Virus record (IMG/VR): IMGVR_UViG_2795385816_000003
Coordinates: 71,520-118,894 of that record
DNA from: a virus
Taxonomy: Duplodnaviria; Heunggongvirae; Uroviricota; Caudoviricetes
Length of the DNA stretch: 47,375 nucleotides
Strand: one strand, 5' to 3'
Shown here: positions 3,164 through 46,334 of the stretch, piece by piece
Numbering within the stretch: position 1 is the stretch's first letter
Layout: each line of letters opens with the position of its first letter
Made by a program: the position numbers and the translations under genes
The notes under the pieces: model-generated
The model's input: only the letters and a program-made list of their open reading frames with translations
What the model was told of the DNA's origin: nothing
The model's database searches: none

Positions 3164-3731
3164 TGCTGTTGGAGTAGCGGCAATCGTTGTCGCTGCTATT
3201 GCTGGCTGTTCCGCGCAAGAAGCCAAGCCTGCGGCGGGCACATCGACCGACACCGCTATTTCTGCGCCGGGAGCTGATTTCGACCAAATTCCTGGGCAAT
3301 TTCCTCAACAGGCTTCGGGGATACCTGGGGCATCTATCGCACCTGTTGGCGCATGCGTCAGTTTTGAAGGGCCCAAGAACAACGCCACATTGAAGGTTGT
3401 CGATTGTGGTTCACCAGTAAACGGGTTCAAGGTGATTCAGCGTGTCACCACACCTGATCAGTGCCCCGCAGACGTAGCCCAGAGGTTCTACATGAACCCC
3501 GATGAGGGGCAATTCACGGCCTGCCTGGATTACGCGTGGAGCGCCAATGACTGTCTGAGCATCGGCAAGGTAACCGCTGTCCGCGCCAAGTGCGATGACA
3601 CGTCGAAGCCGAACCGCGAAAAGCCGTTGAAGGTCATCTTGAACACCACCACGAATGCGGGGTGCGGTCCTGCGGGCGGCTTCCCGCATGCGGTGCGCAA
3701 GTTCACCGTTTGCACCGAGACGCAGAAGTAG
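3138..3731 (+). CDS. LppU-like lipoprotein
   Basis: Lipobox IAG-C; Cys-paired domain (VGACV...VVDC...QC...TACLDYAW...DCL) typical of the mycobacterial LppU/SCO3897 family. Confidence 0.75.
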   Translation: MTVDQRPTSAVGVAAIVVAAIAGCSAQEAKPAAGTSTDTAISAPGADFDQIPGQFPQQASGIPGASIAPVGACVSFEGPKNNATLKVVDCGSPVNGFKVIQRVTTPDQCPADVAQRFYMNPDEGQFTACLDYAWSANDCLSIGKVTAVRAKCDDTSKPNREKPLKVILNTTTNAGCGPAGGFPHAVRKFTVCTETQK

Positions 3732-4972: not shown

Positions 4973-6250
4973 GTGCGGAATCGCTGGGTTCACGTTTCAT
5001 CACCCCCTGCCAGACTTCCGCGCGTGCCCGAATACACGCAGCTTGCCGTCGATGATCTGCACACCTTCACAGGCAACCCGCGCCGCGGTGATGTCAGCGC
5101 AATCGCCGTTTCGTTGACCAAGCACGGCCAGTACCGGCCCATCGTGGTGAATCGGGGCAGCCAGACTGGCCGCCGCAACGAGGTGCTGGCCGGGAACCAC
5201 ACGTTGATGGCTGCGCGGTCGCTCGGCTGGACCACGATTGATGTCGGGATCGTGGATGTTGATGAGGACGCCGCGCGCTCGATCGTGGCGGCCGATAACC
5301 GGCTGGCCGACCTGGGCGAGTACGACACCTCCGACCTCTATCAGCTGTTGTCGTCGATCGAGGACTTGGGCGGAACCGGTTACGGGCTCGAGGATTTGTT
5401 GGCGATGGAGCGTGATCTGTTCCCGCCGGAGCCGCTGACTGACCCGGATGATGTTCCGCCGGCACCGGAGGTACCGGTGTCGCGGGCGGGTCAGTTGTGG
5501 TCGTTGGGGGAGCATCGGCTGCTGGTCGGGTCGGCGACCGATCTGGCGGGTGTGCGGGAGCTGTGTGGTGACGTGCAGCCGGATTGTGTGTGGACCGATC
5601 CGCCCTATGGCGTCGACTATGTGGGGAAGACGAAGGCGGCGTTGCGGATCCAAAACGACGTGACTGGTGGGCTTTTCGAGCTGCTGAAGGCGGCGTTCGA
5701 TGTGGTGGCCGCGGTGGCCCGGCCGGGCGCCCCGGTGTACGTGGCGCACGCGGACACCGAACGCACAACGTTCGAGTCCGCGATGGAAAGCGCCGGGCTG
5801 CAAGTGCGGCAGAACCTGGTGTGGGTGAAGAACATGATGGCCCTTGGCCGTTCGGACTACCAGTACCGGCACGAGCCCATCCTGTACGGGTTCGCCCCGG
5901 GCGGCGAGGGCCGGCTGGGGCGCGGCGGCGAGCGCTGGTTCGGCGACAACAAGTCCACCACGGTGTTTGAGGTGGACAAGCCTGCCTGCAACGCCGAACA
6001 CCCGACGATGAAGCCCGTGGCGTTGATCGAGGCGATGCTGGCCAACAGCCTGCGACCGGGCGGCGTGGTGCTGGACCCGTTCTCCGGCTCGGGGTCCACG
6101 TTGATCGCAGCGCATGGCCGCCAGTCGCGGTGCTTCGGTGTGGAATTGGATCCGCGGTATGCCGATGTGATTCTGCGTCGGTTCGAGGAGCACACGGGCA
6201 TCGTGCCGGAGCTCGACGGCGAGCCTGTGTCGTTCGCGGGCGCAGCCTGA
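4973..6250 (+). CDS. ParB-like domain fused to an N4/N6 DNA methyltransferase (true start possibly GTG 5024)
   Basis: GNPR...RPIVVN...VLAGNH ParB/Srx-like N-terminus; TDPPY, HPTMKP and DPFSGSGST methylase motifs. Confidence 0.9.
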   Translation: MRNRWVHVSSPPARLPRVPEYTQLAVDDLHTFTGNPRRGDVSAIAVSLTKHGQYRPIVVNRGSQTGRRNEVLAGNHTLMAARSLGWTTIDVGIVDVDEDAARSIVAADNRLADLGEYDTSDLYQLLSSIEDLGGTGYGLEDLLAMERDLFPPEPLTDPDDVPPAPEVPVSRAGQLWSLGEHRLLVGSATDLAGVRELCGDVQPDCVWTDPPYGVDYVGKTKAALRIQNDVTGGLFELLKAAFDVVAAVARPGAPVYVAHADTERTTFESAMESAGLQVRQNLVWVKNMMALGRSDYQYRHEPILYGFAPGGEGRLGRGGERWFGDNKSTTVFEVDKPACNAEHPTMKPVALIEAMLANSLRPGGVVLDPFSGSGSTLIAAHGRQSRCFGVELDPRYADVILRRFEEHTGIVPELDGEPVSFAGAA

Positions 6251-6254
6251 CCTC

Positions 6255-7772
6255 ATGTCCGCGGTGTTGAGTCTGGCGGCTGCCCGGTATGTGCGGGTGG
6301 CACGCGCCCGTCGACGGCCGGGGAGCCCCGCTGAGTTGGCGCGCCGTCTCGACACGAAGTTCCGTGTGACACCGACGATCCGGCTGCTGTCGGACCTCGC
6401 GGTGCGATCGGTCAGGGAGCCGGATCAGCGAGATGTTGTCAGCACTCCGCCGCGGACGGGAAAGTCGCAGTCGCTGGCGATCTGGACGCCCGCCTGGGCG
6501 TTGGGCGAAAACCCGGATCTGAAGATTGTGATCGTGTCGTACTCGGATGAGTTGGCGCAGACGCATTCTCGTGAGATCCGCAAGATCATCAACGAGCACG
6601 CCGAGTTCCTGGGATACCGGCTGGCGCGCGATAAGACGTCAGTGGGTCAGTGGCGGGTGGAGGGCCACGAGGGCGGCGTGCTGGCCACCGGTATCAACTC
6701 GGGTGTGACGGGTTTCGGCGCCGACCTGATGATCATCGACGACCCGGTTAAGGATGCGGCGGAAGCCGACTCGAAGGCGCATCGGCGGCGCGTGCTCAAC
6801 GAGTACCAATCGACGTTGTCGACGCGTGTGCATCCGGGCGGCTCCGTCGTGGTGGTGATGACGCGCTGGCATGAGGAAGACTTGGCCGGGGCGCTGATTA
6901 AGCAGGAGCCGGACCGGTGGCGGCGCACCAACATCCCCGCCGTCTCGGACCCGAAGATCCCCGACGCGCTCTGTCGGCCTGCTGGAGTGGCGATGGTCTC
7001 CGCGTTGGGATTCACGGCTGAGCATTTTGTGGCGACACGGCGCACCGTGGGGGAGCGGGTGTGGTTTGCACTGTATTGCGGCGAGCCCACGGCGCCAGCC
7101 GGCGGGCTGGTCAAGCAGAAGTGGTTGGACGATTGGCGGCTCCTACTCGCACCGTCGCGGCCGGTGTTCACCGTGGTGGCGGTAGACCCATCCGATAGCG
7201 GGTCGGGCGACTCGTGCGGTTTGATCGCGACATCGCTCACTGGACAGGGCGTGGTGGCGTTGATCGCGGACAAGTCCAAGCCGATGACATCGGACGAGTG
7301 GGCGCGTGAGTCTGTGCAGTTGGCGATTGACGTGGGGGCCAGCGAGATTGCGGTGGAAGGGTTCGCGGCCCGCGAGACCTACACGCGGGTGGTCAAGGAA
7401 GCGATCACCCGTGCCGAGGAGAACGGCGCACTGAACCGGCCGATCACGGTGTCGTCGTGGCCGCCGAAGGGCCGACCGCGCGTGGGCGATGCGGTGGCGC
7501 GCTCGGCCGCGCTGTTGCAGGCATTGGAGGTGGGCACGTGCCGGTTGGCGGGCCATTTTCCCGAGTTCGAGGCCAAGTCCGTGGCCTGGCAGGCAGGCCA
7601 ACACCAGCCGGACAACTTGGCGGCGTTAGTGATTGGACACGACGTCTGCGTGCATTCGGCGGGGCTGGAGTGGGACATCGCCGCGCCGCTGACGACTGTG
7701 GGCGGGCAGGGGATGCCTTCCGGCGCCGCGGTGACCGACTTGGAGGATTGGATCTCCCGCAAGATCAGCTGA
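6255..7772 (+). CDS. terL: Terminase large subunit
   Basis: Walker A PPRTGKS, Walker B MIIDDP, MTRWHEED motif, nuclease VAVDPS. Confidence 0.92.
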   Translation: MSAVLSLAAARYVRVARARRRPGSPAELARRLDTKFRVTPTIRLLSDLAVRSVREPDQRDVVSTPPRTGKSQSLAIWTPAWALGENPDLKIVIVSYSDELAQTHSREIRKIINEHAEFLGYRLARDKTSVGQWRVEGHEGGVLATGINSGVTGFGADLMIIDDPVKDAAEADSKAHRRRVLNEYQSTLSTRVHPGGSVVVVMTRWHEEDLAGALIKQEPDRWRRTNIPAVSDPKIPDALCRPAGVAMVSALGFTAEHFVATRRTVGERVWFALYCGEPTAPAGGLVKQKWLDDWRLLLAPSRPVFTVVAVDPSDSGSGDSCGLIATSLTGQGVVALIADKSKPMTSDEWARESVQLAIDVGASEIAVEGFAARETYTRVVKEAITRAEENGALNRPITVSSWPPKGRPRVGDAVARSAALLQALEVGTCRLAGHFPEFEAKSVAWQAGQHQPDNLAALVIGHDVCVHSAGLEWDIAAPLTTVGGQGMPSGAAVTDLEDWISRKIS

Positions 7773-7960
7773 GCGGTCGCTACGCCGATCCTTGGACAGT
7801 CAACACGCCGGTGAGCGCCAAGGCGGTAATTGGGTCCAACCGGGGGGTAGCGTCCTAAATGGCAATTGCTACGTCATGGCCCTCTTCATCGCTGGAGGGG
7901 CGGCGCGCTCGCTGAATCTCAGTGAATCGTGTCTTCCGCCCAGTGATGAAGGGAGTGTTC

Positions 7961-8071
7961 ATGTCGCGGCGAAAACAACGAAAAGCCGTAGAAGATTGGA
8001 TCAGGATTCTGATCTTCTTGCTACGGCTCATCGAGGTTATTGCTGTTGTGACCGGTAAACACTGGTACTAG
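7961..8071 (+). CDS. 36-aa hydrophobic peptide (type I toxin-like), below the ORF-track cutoff
   Basis: MSRRKQRKAVEDWIRILIFLLRLIEVIAVVTGKHWY*; SD GAAGGGAG at 7948-7955. Confidence 0.6.
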   Translation: MSRRKQRKAVEDWIRILIFLLRLIEVIAVVTGKHWY

Positions 8072-8105
8072 CCAGGGTTGAGGAACCGACTGCCATCGGT
8101 GACTC

Positions 8106-8134
8106 GGGGGCGGGGCTACTAAAGCCCGCCCTCT
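8106..8134. terminator. Hairpin downstream of the 36-aa ORF, possibly bidirectional
   Basis: GGGCGGGGCT-ACTAA-AGCCCGCCC (one bulged G). Confidence 0.55.
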
Positions 8135-8191
8135 ACCTGTCTGTTCAGCGTGCGTCATGCCGCAAAAGAGCGCTTATGGCGTGACGCGCAC

Positions 8192-8276
8192 TGTAAAGGA
8201 GGTTACACCACAGGTACACCGTGTCACATGTAAGCGCGGTTACATGTCGCAATCAATACATGTAGCGATTGGTACA
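8192..8276. promoter_or_regulatory. Array of TGTA-N8-TACA-like palindromic operator sites
   Basis: Exact at 8192, 8229 and 8261; near matches at 8213 and 8245; the last four abut at a 16-bp period. Confidence 0.65.
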
Positions 8277-8418
8277 CGGTTGTGCGCGCTGGGAGCCGTC
8301 ATCTGGCATCACCCCCGACACCTTGCGATCGGCTGGATTCGTTTGAACCACCTGCTATTCGGCTCGTGGCCGCCTTGCGGTCCGCCAAGCTTGGATTGCT
8401 TGTCACTCGTCAGCTCGT

Positions 8419-8437
8419 CACCGCGTGGGCGTACTTT
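8419..8437 (+). promoter_or_regulatory. CAC-box promoter (CACCG-N8-TACTTT), leaderless to ATG 8445
   Basis: Shared motif; 7 nt from the -10 hexamer to the start codon. Confidence 0.65.
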
Positions 8438-8444
8438 CCTGGCC

Positions 8445-8699
8445 ATGGCCTCGGAAACCATTGACCCCTGCATGGCGTTGTTACCGGATACGGCGTTGGC
8501 GTTCGCGCTCGGTGTGCGGGTGGCTAGCCCGCAGTCGGTGTCAAACGTTGGGCAGGTGTCGACGTTGACCGCCGAGCTGCAGCGCCGCGGTGTGTACGAC
8601 GACATGCTGGCAGTGCTCGATCCTGAGTTGGCGGCGCGGATCGAGTTGTTGGACAGCGCGGATCGCGGCCAACGCTGGGCCCGCACTGGGCACAGGTGA
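8445..8699 (+). CDS. Phage hypothetical protein (84 aa; 3' part of track ORF 8157-8699)
   Basis: MASETIDPCMALLPD...; start chosen from the promoter motif. Confidence 0.65.
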   Translation: MASETIDPCMALLPDTALAFALGVRVASPQSVSNVGQVSTLTAELQRRGVYDDMLAVLDPELAARIELLDSADRGQRWARTGHR

Positions 8700-8717
8700 G
8701 AGGAGAGGAGTACTCCG

Positions 8718-9050: not shown

Positions 9051-9629
9051 GTGTGGGCTTACGGTGGCGTTTGTGTGGTCGATGAACTCGATTCCGGTGC
9101 GCGCGGTTTGACGACGCCAGAGCGGTGGGAACCGGATACACAGATGGTTGCGGCGGTGCTTTCGTCCCCGAAATCGTTCCGCAAGATGACCGAGATGTGC
9201 GATCAGGACCGAGCCTGGCTCGTCGCTGGACTCACGGCCGCGGGTATGACGGCCCAAGACATCGCTGCTCGAACCGGCTGCAGCTTGCGCCTCATCCGCG
9301 CGATCCGCGCCGAGGACATGACGCAGGCGTTCGTGGTCGCGCAGCGGGAGGCGCGCGAGGTCAGCGACGAACTGCGTTTGGAGCGTATCGAACTCACGGC
9401 CACCCGACACGAGGCGGATCAGTCCAGGGCCGAAGCAGCGCGTCTGCGCACGCAGATCGATCAGCTTATCGATGCCCACCTGGCTGACACGCTCACGTTG
9501 TTCCGTTGCGGGCACGCGCAAGTCAAGTACAACGTGTACGAGCATGGCGGCCGCAAGTTCTGCCGCGAATGCGCGCGACTACGCAAGCAGGAGCAGCGCA
9601 AATCTAAGCGTCTAACTGCGGTGTCCTAA
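9051..9629 (+). CDS. HTH DNA-binding protein with coiled coil and Cys/His-rich C-terminus (start possibly GTG 9075)
   Basis: AGMTAQDIAARTGCSLRLIRAIR helix-turn-helix; CGH...CREC tail. Confidence 0.75.
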   Translation: MWAYGGVCVVDELDSGARGLTTPERWEPDTQMVAAVLSSPKSFRKMTEMCDQDRAWLVAGLTAAGMTAQDIAARTGCSLRLIRAIRAEDMTQAFVVAQREAREVSDELRLERIELTATRHEADQSRAEAARLRTQIDQLIDAHLADTLTLFRCGHAQVKYNVYEHGGRKFCRECARLRKQEQRKSKRLTAVS

Positions 9630-10140: not shown

Positions 10141-12042
10141 GTGGCCGCCCAAGACTTGCGTGTTGTTCGACGCCGTAGAGGCGACGCGTTGACGGCCTCT
10201 GCGCCGCGCGCCCTGACCGCAGCGAGCACCCCCGTAACCAACTCGGCCCAGATCTTCCAGGCCGGATCGGTCGGCCGCCGGAACAACTGGCAGGCCGAAG
10301 CCTGGGAGATGTACCGGGCAGTCGGCGAGCTGCGCTACTACGTTGGATGGCGCGCCAACTCATGCTCACGAGTCCGATTCGTGGCCTCCGAAATCGACGC
10401 CGACACCGGTGAGCCAACCGGAAGCATCGCCGAGGACAACCGTGAGGGACAACGGGTCACCGAGATCGTCCGCAAGATCGCCGGCGGCAGGCTAGGGCAG
10501 GCGCAGCTGACTCGACGGGCCGCCGAATCGTTGACGGTCCCGGGTGAGCTGTGGATCGCGATCCTGATGCGGACCGAGGGCACCGACCAAAACCAGAGGC
10601 AGGTGGCCAAGTGGTATGCGGTCACGCGCAGAGAGATTGAACAAGGCCCACGAAGCAACACCGTGACGATCAAGCTGCCTGACGGCACAAAGCACGTGTT
10701 CGATCAGAGCAAGGGAGACGGCATGTTCCGGGTGTGGAACCCCGACGCCGAAGACGCGTCGCTGCCTGACTCGCCTGTGCAGGCGTGCTTGGACTCTCTG
10801 CGCGAGATCGTGCGCACCACGAAAAAGATCAAGAACGCGGATAACTCGCGCCTGCTGAACAATGGACTGCTGTTCGTGCCGTCGGAAGCCACATTGCCCG
10901 ATCAGCAGTCGCCGGTTGCGGCCGATAAACCCGGCGACTCGGCTCCGCAGCTGCAACCGGGCCGACGAGTCGCAGCCTCGCTGCAGCAGATGATCGTTCA
11001 GGTCGCCGAGACCGCGTCCAAGGACGAGAACAGCATGGCCGCCTTGGTCCCGATTGTGGCGGCTGCGCCTGGCGATCACCTGGCGAAGATCAATCACCTT
11101 GAGTTCGGCAAGGACGTTACCGACACGGCGCTGAACACTCGGGAGAAGGCGATCGCTCGGCTAGCGACGGGGTTGGACATGTCCCGGGAGCGGCTGCTTG
11201 GGCTGAGTACTGGAAACCATTGGTCCGCTTGGGCTATCGATGATCAGGACGTGCAGGTGCACGTCAAGCCCGTCATGGAAATCATCTGTCACGCGATCTA
11301 CGAGTCGGTTCTTCGCGGGATGTTGATTGATGAGGGAATCGACCCTGACAAATACATTCTCTGGTACGACGCATCGGCCCTGACGTCCGATCCGGATCTG
11401 ACCGACGAGACGAAGGACGCGTTCGAGAAGGGAGCGGTTACAAGCGAATACCTGGTACGGACCTATGGGATTCCTGATGACGCAATGTATGACTTCACCA
11501 GTTTGGAGGGCTGGCAGCAGTGGGCGCAGGACAGGGTGAGTCAAGATCCCACGCTGCTGCGTGAACTGCTGCCCCTACTCGATAGTTCGGTGCAGGGCAT
11601 CGAGTTCCCTGAGCCCGTTGCAGCGCTGCCGCCCGGCCAAGGCGACGGGGAAGAGGACGCGTCGGGTGCTGAGCAGCAGCAGGAACCGGACACCGAGGAC
11701 GACGGCAGCGGTGTGCAGGCCAGCGCGCGGGCCAACGTGGAACTTGCGGTGGTGGATCTGATGGTGGGCCGCGCTCTCGAGTTGGCCGGCAAGCGACGCG
11801 TCCGCACGAATGATCGTGAGCAGCACGCGCGGCTCAAGGGCATCCCGACGCACGAATATCACCGGTACATGGGCCCGGTCGACGAGCCGGAAGTATCGCG
11901 GCTGATCAAAGGATGGGACAGCATCCTGAGTGATTCGGCCTTGTCGGGGTTGGGGATTGATTCGGAGCGCGTCCGGGACAGCGTGCGCAGGATCGCGCGC
12001 CAGCAGCTCACCAGTGAGGTCGTCGACGGGCAGGTGCTCTGA
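10141..12042 (+). CDS. Portal protein
   Basis: 633 aa, position after terminase, cluster-B-like portal features (WQAEAW..Y..VGELRY; NHWSAW). Confidence 0.85.
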   Translation: MAAQDLRVVRRRRGDALTASAPRALTAASTPVTNSAQIFQAGSVGRRNNWQAEAWEMYRAVGELRYYVGWRANSCSRVRFVASEIDADTGEPTGSIAEDNREGQRVTEIVRKIAGGRLGQAQLTRRAAESLTVPGELWIAILMRTEGTDQNQRQVAKWYAVTRREIEQGPRSNTVTIKLPDGTKHVFDQSKGDGMFRVWNPDAEDASLPDSPVQACLDSLREIVRTTKKIKNADNSRLLNNGLLFVPSEATLPDQQSPVAADKPGDSAPQLQPGRRVAASLQQMIVQVAETASKDENSMAALVPIVAAAPGDHLAKINHLEFGKDVTDTALNTREKAIARLATGLDMSRERLLGLSTGNHWSAWAIDDQDVQVHVKPVMEIICHAIYESVLRGMLIDEGIDPDKYILWYDASALTSDPDLTDETKDAFEKGAVTSEYLVRTYGIPDDAMYDFTSLEGWQQWAQDRVSQDPTLLRELLPLLDSSVQGIEFPEPVAALPPGQGDGEEDASGAEQQQEPDTEDDGSGVQASARANVELAVVDLMVGRALELAGKRRVRTNDREQHARLKGIPTHEYHRYMGPVDEPEVSRLIKGWDSILSDSALSGLGIDSERVRDSVRRIARQQLTSEVVDGQVL

Positions 12043-14776: not shown

Positions 14777-16561
14777 GTGAAGTTCGACAAGCTGCCCGAT
14801 CCGCTGCCCGCCACCGTCGCCGAGCTCAACGAGCTGGCTGCCACTGTGACAGCGGAGATCCGGGTATTCCAGGCCCGCGCCGCCGCCAACGACGAGTTCA
14901 GCGCTGAGGAGACTGAGCGTTTCGAGTACTTGCTCGACAGTCGCGACAAGGTTGTGACCGAGCGCGATTCGATCGCCGCCGCCGATCAGGCACAGACCGA
15001 GAACCTCAACGCCCTACTCGACCGCGCGAATGCCGCGACCGAGAAGCCCGCGGCCGAGCCAGAGGCCGACACCGTGACAGACAGCGAGGCAGCCCCCGCA
15101 GACGGCGACGGTGGTGCTGCAGCGGAAGTGGTGGCAGAGGCCGAAGCCGCCACCGCGGCAGCTGCCGCGGATTCGGAAACTGTCACCGCTGCCGCAGGTT
15201 CGGGCCGTCAGGTCGAGTTCGCGGGCGCAGTTCGCAACAGTGATATCCCTTCCGGTACCCCCGGCGATGAGACGCCCAAGGGCTGGGACATGCTGCAGTC
15301 GGCGCCGAAGTACGCCGAGTTCGGCACCGAGAAGGTCGGTTTCGCCGAGATTGCTCAGTCGATTGCCTCTGTAAGTGCAGGGTCCGTCTCGGGCCGTCAG
15401 CGCACCGGCACGAGCCCTGACGGCAACTACGCGACCCAGGCGATCGCCCGCCTGACGCGGCCTGCTCCGGAGATTCCGGCGCCTGCCAATGAGCATGAGG
15501 CGCTCGCGGTTCTGGATGCCATCGGCCGCGCCATCCCGGGTCACGGCCCAGTGAACGCGAAGGGCCTGGTCGCTGCTGGTGGTTGGTGTGCTCCGTCGCA
15601 GCAGGTCTACACCTTCTGTGGTGTGCCCGAGGCGTCGAATCTGCTGTCGCTGCCGGACTTCCCGTTCGACTTCTCTCGCGGAGGTGTCCGCGTCCCGATC
15701 AGCCCCGATGTGTCGGCGCTACTGGACAACCTGTGGCACTTCACCGAAGCCGAACTCGAAGCCGTTAACGCCCAGGGCGATCCGACTGCGGTCAAGAAGC
15801 TCATCGAGTTGCCGTGCCCGGACGAGTTCCTCGAGTGGCGCCTGGAGGCGATCGGTTGGGCGGCCAAGGCCGGCATCTTGATGCGCCAAGCCTGGCCCGA
15901 GGCGATCGAGAACGCATTGCAGCAGATCCAGGTTGCCCACCAGCACCGTGTCTCGCAGATCTCTATCGGCAAGATGGTCGCTGGGTCGGGCACTCCGATC
16001 GTGGTTCCTGCCGGGGCGGTGCTGGGAGCAACTAGCGGCGTTCTCAACGGTCTGGCGCTGCAGGCGTCGAACCTTCGGTACAACAAGGGGCTCGCAGACA
16101 ACGCCACCATCGAAGGCGTTGCGCCGGTGTGGTTCCGCGAGGTGCTGCGAGCAGACCTTGCGCTGCGTGAGGGCAAGGAATTCCTGGCCGTCACCAACGC
16201 GGAGATCGACAACTGGCTGGCGGTCCGCGACATCTACCTGCAGTACGTGGTTGATTGGCAGACCCGCGGCGCGGGCCAGCCCGGCAACATGGCCACGGTG
16301 GTGTACCCGGCCACGGTCGACGTGATGCTGTATCCGGCCGGCACCTGGTTCCGAACCATGAACAACGTCATCACCTTGGGTGTGCAGTACCCGCTGCAGC
16401 AGTTGCAGCTCAACCAGTACACCCACGTGTTCACCGAGGACTCGCTGCAGGTGGGCAAGCGTTGCGACCAGTCGATCATCGTGCGGCTGCCGATCTGCGT
16501 GTCCGGTGCTATCGGCGCTCGTCAGACCGTGGCGTGCAACACGCCGCCTGCGACCCCGTAG
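14777..16561 (+). CDS. Major capsid protein (large, cluster-B hexamer type, with N-terminal scaffold-like region)
   Basis: 594 aa; acidic coiled N-terminus; LVAAGGWCAPS motif; position after protease. Confidence 0.85.
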   Translation: MKFDKLPDPLPATVAELNELAATVTAEIRVFQARAAANDEFSAEETERFEYLLDSRDKVVTERDSIAAADQAQTENLNALLDRANAATEKPAAEPEADTVTDSEAAPADGDGGAAAEVVAEAEAATAAAAADSETVTAAAGSGRQVEFAGAVRNSDIPSGTPGDETPKGWDMLQSAPKYAEFGTEKVGFAEIAQSIASVSAGSVSGRQRTGTSPDGNYATQAIARLTRPAPEIPAPANEHEALAVLDAIGRAIPGHGPVNAKGLVAAGGWCAPSQQVYTFCGVPEASNLLSLPDFPFDFSRGGVRVPISPDVSALLDNLWHFTEAELEAVNAQGDPTAVKKLIELPCPDEFLEWRLEAIGWAAKAGILMRQAWPEAIENALQQIQVAHQHRVSQISIGKMVAGSGTPIVVPAGAVLGATSGVLNGLALQASNLRYNKGLADNATIEGVAPVWFREVLRADLALREGKEFLAVTNAEIDNWLAVRDIYLQYVVDWQTRGAGQPGNMATVVYPATVDVMLYPAGTWFRTMNNVITLGVQYPLQQLQLNQYTHVFTEDSLQVGKRCDQSIIVRLPICVSGAIGARQTVACNTPPATP

Positions 16562-16587
16562 CGGAGCCCGGCGAATCGCATTGGACG

Positions 16588-16632
16588 AGGCGGGCGGACG
16601 TGAACAACCGAGGCATTCACGTCCGCCCGCCT
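16588..16632. repeat. 17-bp inverted repeat between the two capsid genes
   Basis: AGGCGGGCGGACGTGAA / TTCACGTCCGCCCGCCT, 11-nt loop, no U tract. Confidence 0.85.
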
Positions 16633-16657
16633 TCCCGGCAGAGAGGAATCGCGCCAC

Positions 16658-17431
16658 ATGACCGCAGCACTATCCCCGGTGCAGTTTGACGCACCGTTGG
16701 TCAACCCGGCACCCAACGGGCTCGTCGCTGCCACCCAGTGGGTCGACGAGAGCGGTCCGCTGCGCTGGCTGCCGTCCGGTGTCGAGTTCCGGGTCTTCAA
16801 CTACGGCGGCGGCACCCAGTTCGGCGTCTGGAGCGCAGCATGGAACGCCACCGAGTCTGAGCTCAAACCCGCCGATGTCAAAAAGGGTGAGCGTCCTGCC
16901 TTCCTAGATGCGTTCATTGCGCAGACCACGTACGCATCGGACGACTGCAGTCTGCTCAAGCGGAGCCGCGATGAGATCCGGGTCCGGGCACAGCAAGTAC
17001 ACCGCGTGCTGGAGCCTATCCAGACGGAGAAAACGCTCGCGGCCCGCATGCTGCTCGATGCCGGGACGCCTGCGGCTAAGACGGGAATCGTGGCAGCTAT
17101 CGGCGCCATCGAGGGGCTGATCGCGGACACCGGCACCGTCGGGGTCATTCACGCGTCGGCGGAGTTGGCCGCCCCTGCCGCACAGGCGAATCTGATCCGC
17201 TACAACAACGGCCGGCTGGTTTCACCGCTGGGTAACACCTGGGTGTTCGGCGGCGGTTACGTCTCGGCGCTGGGCTCCAAGCTGATCGCTACCAGCCCCA
17301 CCTACGGATGGCGCGGACCAGTGGAGCTGCGCGATGCGCCGAGCCTGCAGCACAACGAATTCAAGGCCATCGCCGAGCGGTCGCTGGTCGTCGGATATGA
17401 GGCGCTGATCGGCGCCGTGAACATCACGTAG
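16658..17431 (+). CDS. Second capsid protein (cluster-B pentamer type)
   Basis: 257 aa directly after the capsid gene; size, position and composition match the B-like second capsid gene. Confidence 0.65.
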   Translation: MTAALSPVQFDAPLVNPAPNGLVAATQWVDESGPLRWLPSGVEFRVFNYGGGTQFGVWSAAWNATESELKPADVKKGERPAFLDAFIAQTTYASDDCSLLKRSRDEIRVRAQQVHRVLEPIQTEKTLAARMLLDAGTPAAKTGIVAAIGAIEGLIADTGTVGVIHASAELAAPAAQANLIRYNNGRLVSPLGNTWVFGGGYVSALGSKLIATSPTYGWRGPVELRDAPSLQHNEFKAIAERSLVVGYEALIGAVNIT

Positions 17432-45877: not shown

Positions 45878-46001
45878 GCACCCGAATTGGGGTGTTGGAT
45901 GATCCAACATTCCGATAGGTTTCCGCAGGTCGGGCATAGGTCTCAACAGGTCTGTTTTTTCGGCAAGAAACGCTCTGACCTGCGTATATATGTGGATAAC
46001 A

Positions 46002-46029
46002 AGGGGTTCGAGTCCCCTTAGCTCCACCA
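46002..46029 (+). other. att core (prophage right junction): 3' half of a tRNA-Ala
   Basis: AGGGGTTCGAGTCCCCT T-arm plus TAGCTCC-A-CCA acceptor strand that would pair with GGGGCTA (G3:U70); no 5' half upstream. Confidence 0.85.
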
Positions 46030-46030
46030 T

Positions 46031-46060
46031 AATCCCAGGTCAGACGACCTGGGATTTTTT
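46031..46060 (+). terminator. Rho-independent terminator following the tRNA 3' end
   Basis: AATCCCAGGTC-AGAC-GACCTGGGATT-TTTT. Confidence 0.85.
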
Positions 46061-46334
46061 GTCTCTGAGGACCAGGAATGGCTGAGGGGATATCAATCGG
46101 TGCGACGCAGAAGTGGCCCGTCGTGGCAGGTGGCGTCGGTCAGCGGCGGTGGACCGCCGAAGTGCGGGCGATCGCGTTGGATCGGCCGGTTTTCTCGCGC
46201 TGAAGCGGTCTGCCGGTTACGGCTGTCGGTTCGGGGAGCCAGGCACATTTGTTCAATTCGGTGAGTGCGGCCCGCACGCGGCGCCAGGCCGACACGACAG
46301 CCATCCGAGGACCGTCCAACGGCTAGCAGCATGG

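Follow-up and report, generated by a model that had tools for sequence, protein, structure and literature searches.

A hairpin-buried small open reading frame with type I toxin-like features in the post-terminase cargo slot of a Mycobacterium abscessus prophage

The window analyzed here, a stretch of 47,375 nucleotides from a 118.9-kb record classed as a provirus, is a Mycobacterium abscessus prophage of cluster MabL. It is matched at 91-94% identity by the M. abscessus prophages prophiT49-1, prophiT46-2, prophiT48-1 and prophiT36-1, all of which are members of that cluster (PMC9934374). Between the genes for the large terminase (TerL; 6255-7772) and the portal protein (10141-12042), the window carries a variable cassette of 641 nucleotides (7773-8413), which extends from the TerL stop codon to a conserved DUF7423 gene. 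In the annotation of prophiT49-1, no feature is called in the equivalent of 7773-8243, that is, from the TerL stop to a gene start at 8244. When prophiT46-2 is aligned to the window, homology is lost at the TerL stop and comes back near 8414, roughly 30 nucleotides ahead of the ATG at 8445, and the gap is filled by a different gene of 102 amino acids (3192-3500 of its locus) that is unrelated to the cassette. Compositionally, the cassette lies below its surroundings in the GC profile of the window (GC 0.49-0.60), and the frame-specific GC3 signal collapses from about 7790 to 8430. Relatives of the prophage differ at this very point: directly after TerL, the relative in M. aquaticum has an open reading frame (ORF) of 331 amino acids with a low GC content of about 40-50% (5589-6584 of its locus), that in a Mycobacterium sp. 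has a 65-aa ORF in reverse orientation (5539-5736, minus strand, of its locus) and that in M. canariasense has a 92-aa ORF (5684-5962 of its locus), while in M. litorale the next gene starts almost immediately. None of these post-TerL inserts matched a known family in Pfam or PADLOC. Because relatives hold different orphan inserts after TerL, the site is a cargo slot, and the cassette, an insert of deviant composition that separates genes adjacent in relatives, is foreign prophage cargo (a moron). Morons may also bring their own promoter and terminator; the cassette contains a -10-like hexamer at 7848 and a stem-loop (H5, below), neither of which is called by a promoter and terminator scan. 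One RNA-seq contig that includes the cassette has one end at 7329 and ceases to match the window beyond 8690, so the prophage of that strain is mosaic with respect to the window on both sides of an identical cassette.

The conserved gene that follows the cassette (8432-8699, plus strand; DUF7423/phrog_982) encodes 84 amino acids, the same length as gene 53 of prophiT46-2. A -10 hexamer, TACTTT (8432-8437), ends 7 nucleotides upstream of its ATG at 8445, which fits a leaderless start, and the aligned hexamer in prophiT46-2 is TACGTT. Since the DUF7423/phrog_982 matches, like the GC3 signal and the homology to prophiT46-2, set in only at about 8414-8445, the gene in prophiT49-1 is probably annotated with too early a start at the equivalent of 8244, and 7773-8413 is taken as the extent of the cassette. 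Toward its end the cassette holds an array of TGTA-N8-TACA palindromes (8192-8276), with exact sites at 8192, 8229 and 8261 and degenerate sites at 8213 and 8245. Three exact sites compare with 0.05 expected, four of the five sites keep a 16-bp register, and neither the rest of the window nor the rest of the 119-kb record contains the motif. The array overlaps the 3' arm of hairpin H6, where the structured RNA described below has its 3' end, as well as both candidate leftward -10 elements, and one may speculate that a protein bound to it could control a leftward promoter. The genes that separate TerL from the portal gene include one for a conserved helix-turn-helix (HTH) protein shared with Dori-like phages (9051-9629; phrog_928, with a weak HTH_23 match). 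In the stretches of prophiT49-1 and prophiT46-2 that were examined, no gene is annotated as a small terminase, so the HTH protein could be TerS-like or a regulatory DNA binder, and it is a candidate for binding the array.

Copies of the cassette are few. Searches of phages by blastn and tblastn, together with contig scans, recovered only near-identical copies, in prophiT49-1 and in two IMG/VR proviruses. These differ at two positions, 8123 and 8167, which fall at the apical ends of hairpins H5 and H6, and because the copies are otherwise identical, covariation is uninformative for the fold. The cassette is absent from plasmids (blastn), from JGI metagenomes and from 185,579 species-representative genomes. 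With a single copy in the 119-kb record and none in the species-representative genomes, a multi-copy repeat of the MITE or ERIC type was rejected.

On the plus strand, the 348 nucleotides from 7858 to 8205 are predicted to fold into six stacked hairpins (H1-H6) at -171.3 kcal/mol (z -8.5), and the flanks fold ordinarily (7773-7870, z -0.95; 8200-8450, z +1.6). In a scan of both strands by 120-nt windows, those of the locus rank second to fifth of 6302 after GC correction, all of them on the plus strand. The same scan gave other exceptionally low GC-corrected folding energies at 16516-16710 on the minus strand and at 45946-46125 on both strands. The first of the six hairpins, H1 (7866-7972, plus strand), is a leader hairpin of 44 bp, 9 of them G.U pairs, with a folding energy of -59.4 kcal/mol (z -6.1) that 0 of 200 shuffles equaled. 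Within it, the Shine-Dalgarno (SD) sequence GAAGGGAG (7948-7955; GGAG core at 7952-7955, 5 nucleotides before the ATG) is paired with 7881-7887, and the AUG at 7961-7963 is paired with 7875-7877. A sequence-only reading of this DNA had placed the SD in a stem of about 14 bp that enclosed two further stems. That stem is real and larger than had been supposed, being the center of H1, in which the AUG is paired too, and both inner stems likewise belong to H1. In silico, H1 thus provides what is expected of a type I toxin mRNA, namely a message kept inert by structure over its SD and start codon.

The remaining hairpins continue without much interruption to the end of the segment. H2 (7967-8045, plus strand; 31 bp) lies within the ORF that starts at 7961, H3 (8048-8068, plus strand; 8 bp) covers its final codons and H4 (8080-8105, plus strand; 8 bp) follows. 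The hairpin that had been noticed at 8106-8134 was confirmed as H5 (8106-8133), a GC-rich, terminator-like stem-loop of 11 bp whose loop is bordered by the variable position 8123. The terminator scan does not call H5, which lacks a U-tract on both strands, and the 3' end of the mRNA is consequently uncertain. H6 (8135-8203; 26 bp) bears the first operator site in its 3' arm and position 8167 at its tip. The minus strand of the locus is also structured (-138.8 kcal/mol, z -7.2), and the plus strand is more stable by 32 kcal/mol, with 17 G.U pairs among the 127 pairs of its fold. For H1, the minus-strand equivalent folds at just -39.7 kcal/mol, an advantage of 19.7 kcal/mol to the plus strand that amounts to only about 2.2 standard deviations of the window-wide spread. 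The strand assignment of the structured RNA leans to plus, and a role for the minus strand or for the DNA itself keeps some probability.

The ORF whose start is buried in H1 (7961-8071, plus strand; MSRRKQRK...GKHWY) encodes 36 amino acids and was correctly described in the earlier reading, both in its position and in its layout of a basic N-terminus followed by one hydrophobic helix with spaced arginine, arginine and glutamate residues. The transmembrane-like helix occupies residues 13-32 or thereabouts, and R15, R22 and E25 form a polar stripe along it which, together with E11 and K33, falls within an 80-degree arc of the helical wheel; such a charged stripe suggests oligomerization or pore formation. 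The best 17-aa window of the peptide has a mean Kyte-Doolittle value of 2.49. By prediction, then, it is a small hydrophobic membrane peptide within the size range of type I toxins (<60 amino acids). ORFs of this kind are rare in the window: among 773 candidate starts (ATG or GTG starts giving ORFs of 25-60 amino acids in six frames of the 47-kb stretch, 45 of which have an SD), this one alone combines an SD with a transmembrane-like stretch of 17 residues, and dinucleotide shuffles of the cassette yield an SD and a small transmembrane-like ORF in 0.2-0.3% of trials. From codon 13 to codon 30, T occurs 13 times at position 2 but 3 and 5 times at the two remaining positions (p about 0.02). The GC3 of the ORF is 0.57, vs. 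0.83 in TerL and neighboring genes. That its hydropathy might be a by-product of the hairpin was considered and rejected. The pairing register of H2 is mostly codon position 2 with 3, 3 with 2 and 1 with 1, and not 2 with 2, so a hairpin artifact does not explain the hydrophobic helix. Moreover, rare codons ending in A or T in the N-terminal part pair with the second-position U of hydrophobic codons in H2, a pattern of wobble pairing that fits a sequence both coding and structured. On balance, we consider that the ORF probably codes for a peptide.

With respect to its relationships, the peptide is an orphan in the collections searched. No homologue beyond the near-identical copies was found by blastn and tblastn against phages, by blastn against plasmids or by pattern scans of genome, viral and metagenome contigs. 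Given the shortness of the 36-aa ORF, a 49-aa frame started at a GTG served as query for the searches for protein homologues and related loci, and phmmer against 1.8 billion representatives matched the peptide to itself only. A 38-aa gene call, P0001, is the same ORF, and no contig encoding it is on record. There was no significant match to known type I toxin families (Hok/Gef, Fst/Ldr, TisB, DinQ, Ibs, ShoB, TxpA/BsrG and others) and no family match in Pfam, NCBIfam or PADLOC; in PHROGs, the best match was non-significant (E 0.14) and led to a family of unknown function. A feature search in the Atlas gave 0.81 for the peptide against the TisB and DinQ clusters, a value inside the noise of that tool and a lead at best. 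Known RNA classes were rejected as well: an Rfam search of the locus at E<=1 returned a single spurious match, to a miRNA model (E 0.48, far under the gathering score), and the locus holds no tRNA or tmRNA genes.

How the cassette might be transcribed can be considered from its hexamers. The promoter and terminator scan of 7500-8700 returned zero calls. Hexamers of the form TANNNT are rare at the locus, at 1.2-1.4 per kb per strand; the plus strand of 7773-8444 has two only, TAGCGT at 7848 and the TACTTT at 8432 of the downstream gene, and the minus strand of the cassette has three, at 8205, 8195 and 8039. Two of these had been proposed as -10 elements, TAGCGT on the plus strand (7848-7853) and TACAGT on the minus strand (8195-8190). 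Both are present as described, but they are bare TANNNT matches with a poor -35 and no call in the scan. A transcript from TAGCGT would have its first nucleotide at 7859-7861, where H1 has its foot and where an ATG is located. A +1 ATG or GTG is both required and enough for translation in mycobacteria, and small leaderless ORFs often precede genes there (PMC4633059). The ATG here would open a candidate leaderless upstream ORF (uORF) of 18 codons, MAIATSWPSSSLEGRRAR (7859-7915, plus strand), read from the sequence and presumed to be translated. The uORF covers the 5' arm of H1 over its full length, and its stop codon directly precedes the apical loop at 7916-7918. When the 5' arm is masked, the mean unpaired probability of the stretch from the SD to the AUG rises from 0.22 to 0.41-0.43, the SD being only 41-47% unpaired even then.

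For the opposite direction, a candidate promoter on the minus strand combines GTGACA (8227-8222), a 16-nt spacer and TAACCT (8205-8200) as a consensus match, from which an RNA would start at about 8194-8192, at the foot of the minus-strand H6. TACAGT, likewise a consensus match only, would start an RNA near 8183 and so cut H6, and GTGACA/TAACCT appears the somewhat better candidate of the two. Short direct repeats, CGTCATG (7872 and 8155) and GCCCTCT (7879 and 8128), had been read as a link between the leader and a putative antisense region. The repeats are present, but at chance level (three shared 7-mers vs. 1.0 expected, p 0.12), and they follow each other in opposite order at the two sites, which rules out a colinear duplex. 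The duplex energy of the leader with the putative leftward RNA falls in the 5-6% tail of controls (p 0.05-0.06) and does not stand above them. In one RNA-seq run, a single strandless contig covers 7329-8690 at a mean word depth of 112.6, which shows neither transcription nor strand; no reads fell on the stretch in three raw-read runs with that species label, so these do not bear on transcription. The antitoxin side of the locus, a leftward antisense RNA, is unsupported. With repeats at chance level and in the wrong order, a start at 8183 that would cut H6 and a peptide that belongs to no known toxin family, the proposed likeness to an antitoxin arrangement of the Fst/Ldr/TisB type finds no support.

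What stands of the type I toxin-antitoxin (TA) reading is its toxin-like half. The structural observation is real and striking, and this half is supported in silico by a single-pass peptide with a polar stripe, a locked SD and AUG, a stem-loop downstream of the stop codon and the location of the locus in a slot for exchangeable cargo. Our preferred account, which we hold tentatively, is that the prophage carries, as cargo, a small membrane peptide resembling type I toxins whose translation is locked, with the leaderless uORF or processing as possible means of opening the lock. A short and compact plus-strand mRNA, presumably transcribed from 7848, would encode the 36-aa single-pass membrane peptide, and translation of the peptide would be off by default through the pairing of its SD and AUG in H1. 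By analogy with type I toxins, the peptide may harm the membrane when it is made, and its production would need the lock to be opened. Three routes can be envisaged. A ribosome on the leaderless 18-codon uORF could traverse the 5' arm of H1, in a coupling of the hok/mok type; the long stem could be cleaved, for example by RNase III, for which 44 bp of stem would make a plausible substrate; or a leftward RNA complementary to the 3' part of the mRNA, expressed from the operator-covered promoter at 8190-8227, could be lost. A role of the locus in addiction or abortive infection might then be imagined, again by analogy with type I systems.

A structured non-coding RNA is a serious rival, and the one that fares best. 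Here, the cassette would yield a structured RNA in the late operon or a stand-alone sRNA, the 36-aa ORF would go untranslated, and the hairpins would be sites of RNase III/E processing, would stabilize the TerL message at its 3' end or would insulate transcription. Several of the observations above speak for it: six hairpins at z -8.5 tile the entire segment, ORF included, the GC3 coding signal is absent from the segment, the ORF lacks a homologue in searches beyond identical copies, and the annotators of prophiT49-1 called no gene at the locus. Indeed, the burial of the SD and AUG (-59 kcal/mol) is so deep that translation may never occur. Against this, an SD, an ATG and a transmembrane-like ORF are very unlikely to coincide by chance, the period-3 pattern of T fits coding, and the RNA matches no Rfam family. 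The sister prophage also lacks the element and does without it, so the late operon does not depend on it as a core processing site. We regard a purely non-coding product as less likely than the locked peptide.

Less probable again, in our view, is a real peptide that is not a TA toxin, such as a benign small membrane protein acting in superinfection exclusion or as a defense accessory like HK97 gp15, or a late helper, with hairpins that merely tune mRNA stability or dosage. A basic N-terminus and one helix make up a layout common among small bacterial membrane proteins. The cassette sits in a cargo slot among virion genes that is filled in related prophages by diverse genes of unknown function, and the antitoxin side offers only weak leftward promoter candidates and chance-level repeats, all of which would suit a benign product. 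The near-complete occlusion of the SD and AUG, however, is unusual for a constitutive exclusion protein and typical of toxic peptides (PMC6562991), and the charged stripe of the helix, if it does mediate oligomerization or pore formation, would point the same way.

The weakest of the alternatives, which we think improbable, takes the locus for a DNA-level element or decaying foreign DNA, whose palindromes and TGTA-N8-TACA array would form an origin-like, packaging-related or regulatory protein-binding region with the RNA fold and the ORF as by-products: structure is strong on either strand (z -8.5 and -7.2), the five-site array adjoins the lowest-GC stretch, and the element is a single-copy orphan, yet the 17 G.U pairs become A.C mismatches on the less stable opposite strand, chance is an improbable source of the SD, ORF and transmembrane-like combination, and the position of TerL near the left genome end in related Dori-like phages suggests that the ends lie upstream of TerL. 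A cos or pac site was judged unlikely on the same grounds, the TerL position in Dori-like phages and the G.U pairs in the hairpins.

To our knowledge, no type I TA system is established in mycobacteria, and none from mycobacteria or actinobacteria turned up in the reviews searched. A validated case would accordingly be new for the phylum; at present, the cassette is an orphan candidate. M. abscessus prophages are studied for the ways in which they shape phage-therapy outcomes and host physiology. If validated, an RNA-locked membrane toxin would be a new class of prophage cargo in this species, and the locus would offer a compact model for the control of a hairpin-locked gene by a leaderless uORF. 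The most elaborate version would be the first type I TA-like system of an actinobacterium or mycobacteriophage, with a membrane toxin locked by a 44-bp hairpin, a leaderless leader peptide as its opener, an antitoxin promoter under the five-site operator array and a DNA-binding protein that decides toxin release. We consider it a long shot; if an operator does control an antitoxin promoter here, a regulated dead-man switch would be at work in an M. abscessus prophage of clinical relevance. Should the RNA itself be what the locus makes, it would stand out among structured phage RNAs by its size and would belong to no known family. Either way, the annotation of the region is incomplete, with nothing called at 7773-8243 in prophiT49-1 and the next gene apparently over-extended.

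Among known systems, close parallels to the cassette exist in the type I systems of Bacillus subtilis prophages, for which SD sequestration and antitoxins that overlap the toxin mRNA at the 3' end are established (PMC6562991). Like bsrG/SR4 and yonT/SR6 of SPbeta (PMC6562991), it is prophage-borne and would encode a small hydrophobic peptide with an SD sequestered in the mRNA. In both of these systems a convergent downstream promoter drives the antitoxin and the RNAs overlap at their 3' ends; the counterpart in the cassette would be the candidate promoter at 8190-8227. The peptides share no sequence similarity, the host of the cassette is an actinobacterium, and its antisense RNA is only a candidate. 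The SD-blocking stem differs greatly in size as well, at 44 bp in the cassette vs. 4-8 bp in bsrG. The hok/mok/Sok system of plasmid R1 and ldrD/RdlD provide a second parallel, that of a compact and translationally inert toxin mRNA whose toxin is translated by way of a leader or overlapping ORF; for hok/Sok, coupling to a leader peptide is established (PMC6562991). Hok also resembles the cassette peptide in having a basic N-terminus followed by a transmembrane helix. Unlike mok, however, the uORF of the cassette is predicted, lies clear of the toxin ORF and would work by opening one arm of a hairpin, and neither a Sok-like RNA opposite the leader nor a Pfam HOK_GEF match is evident. Similarity to Fst/par of pAD1 (RNA I/RNA II) is confined to a small hydrophobic peptide and to transcription that would converge on a shared stem-loop; the colinear direct repeats (DRa/DRb) and bidirectional terminator that define that system are lacking in the cassette, and the peptide matches no Fst family model.

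Two further comparisons lie outside TA systems. In translational attenuation leaders such as those of ermC and cat, the 5' arm of a hairpin is traversed by a short leader ORF and the 3' arm contains the SD and AUG of the ORF that follows, which is also the arrangement predicted for H1. The cassette differs from these in that its product would be a 36-aa peptide and not a resistance enzyme, its leader ORF would be leaderless, and no stalling motif is known for it. Finally, phage morons such as HK97 gp15, in the tail-gene block, are inserts of foreign composition between virion genes that possibly bring their own promoter and terminator and encode a small membrane protein, all of which may apply to the cassette. 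Morons are normally translated freely in the lysogen, however, whereas the ribosome-binding site of the cassette is locked.
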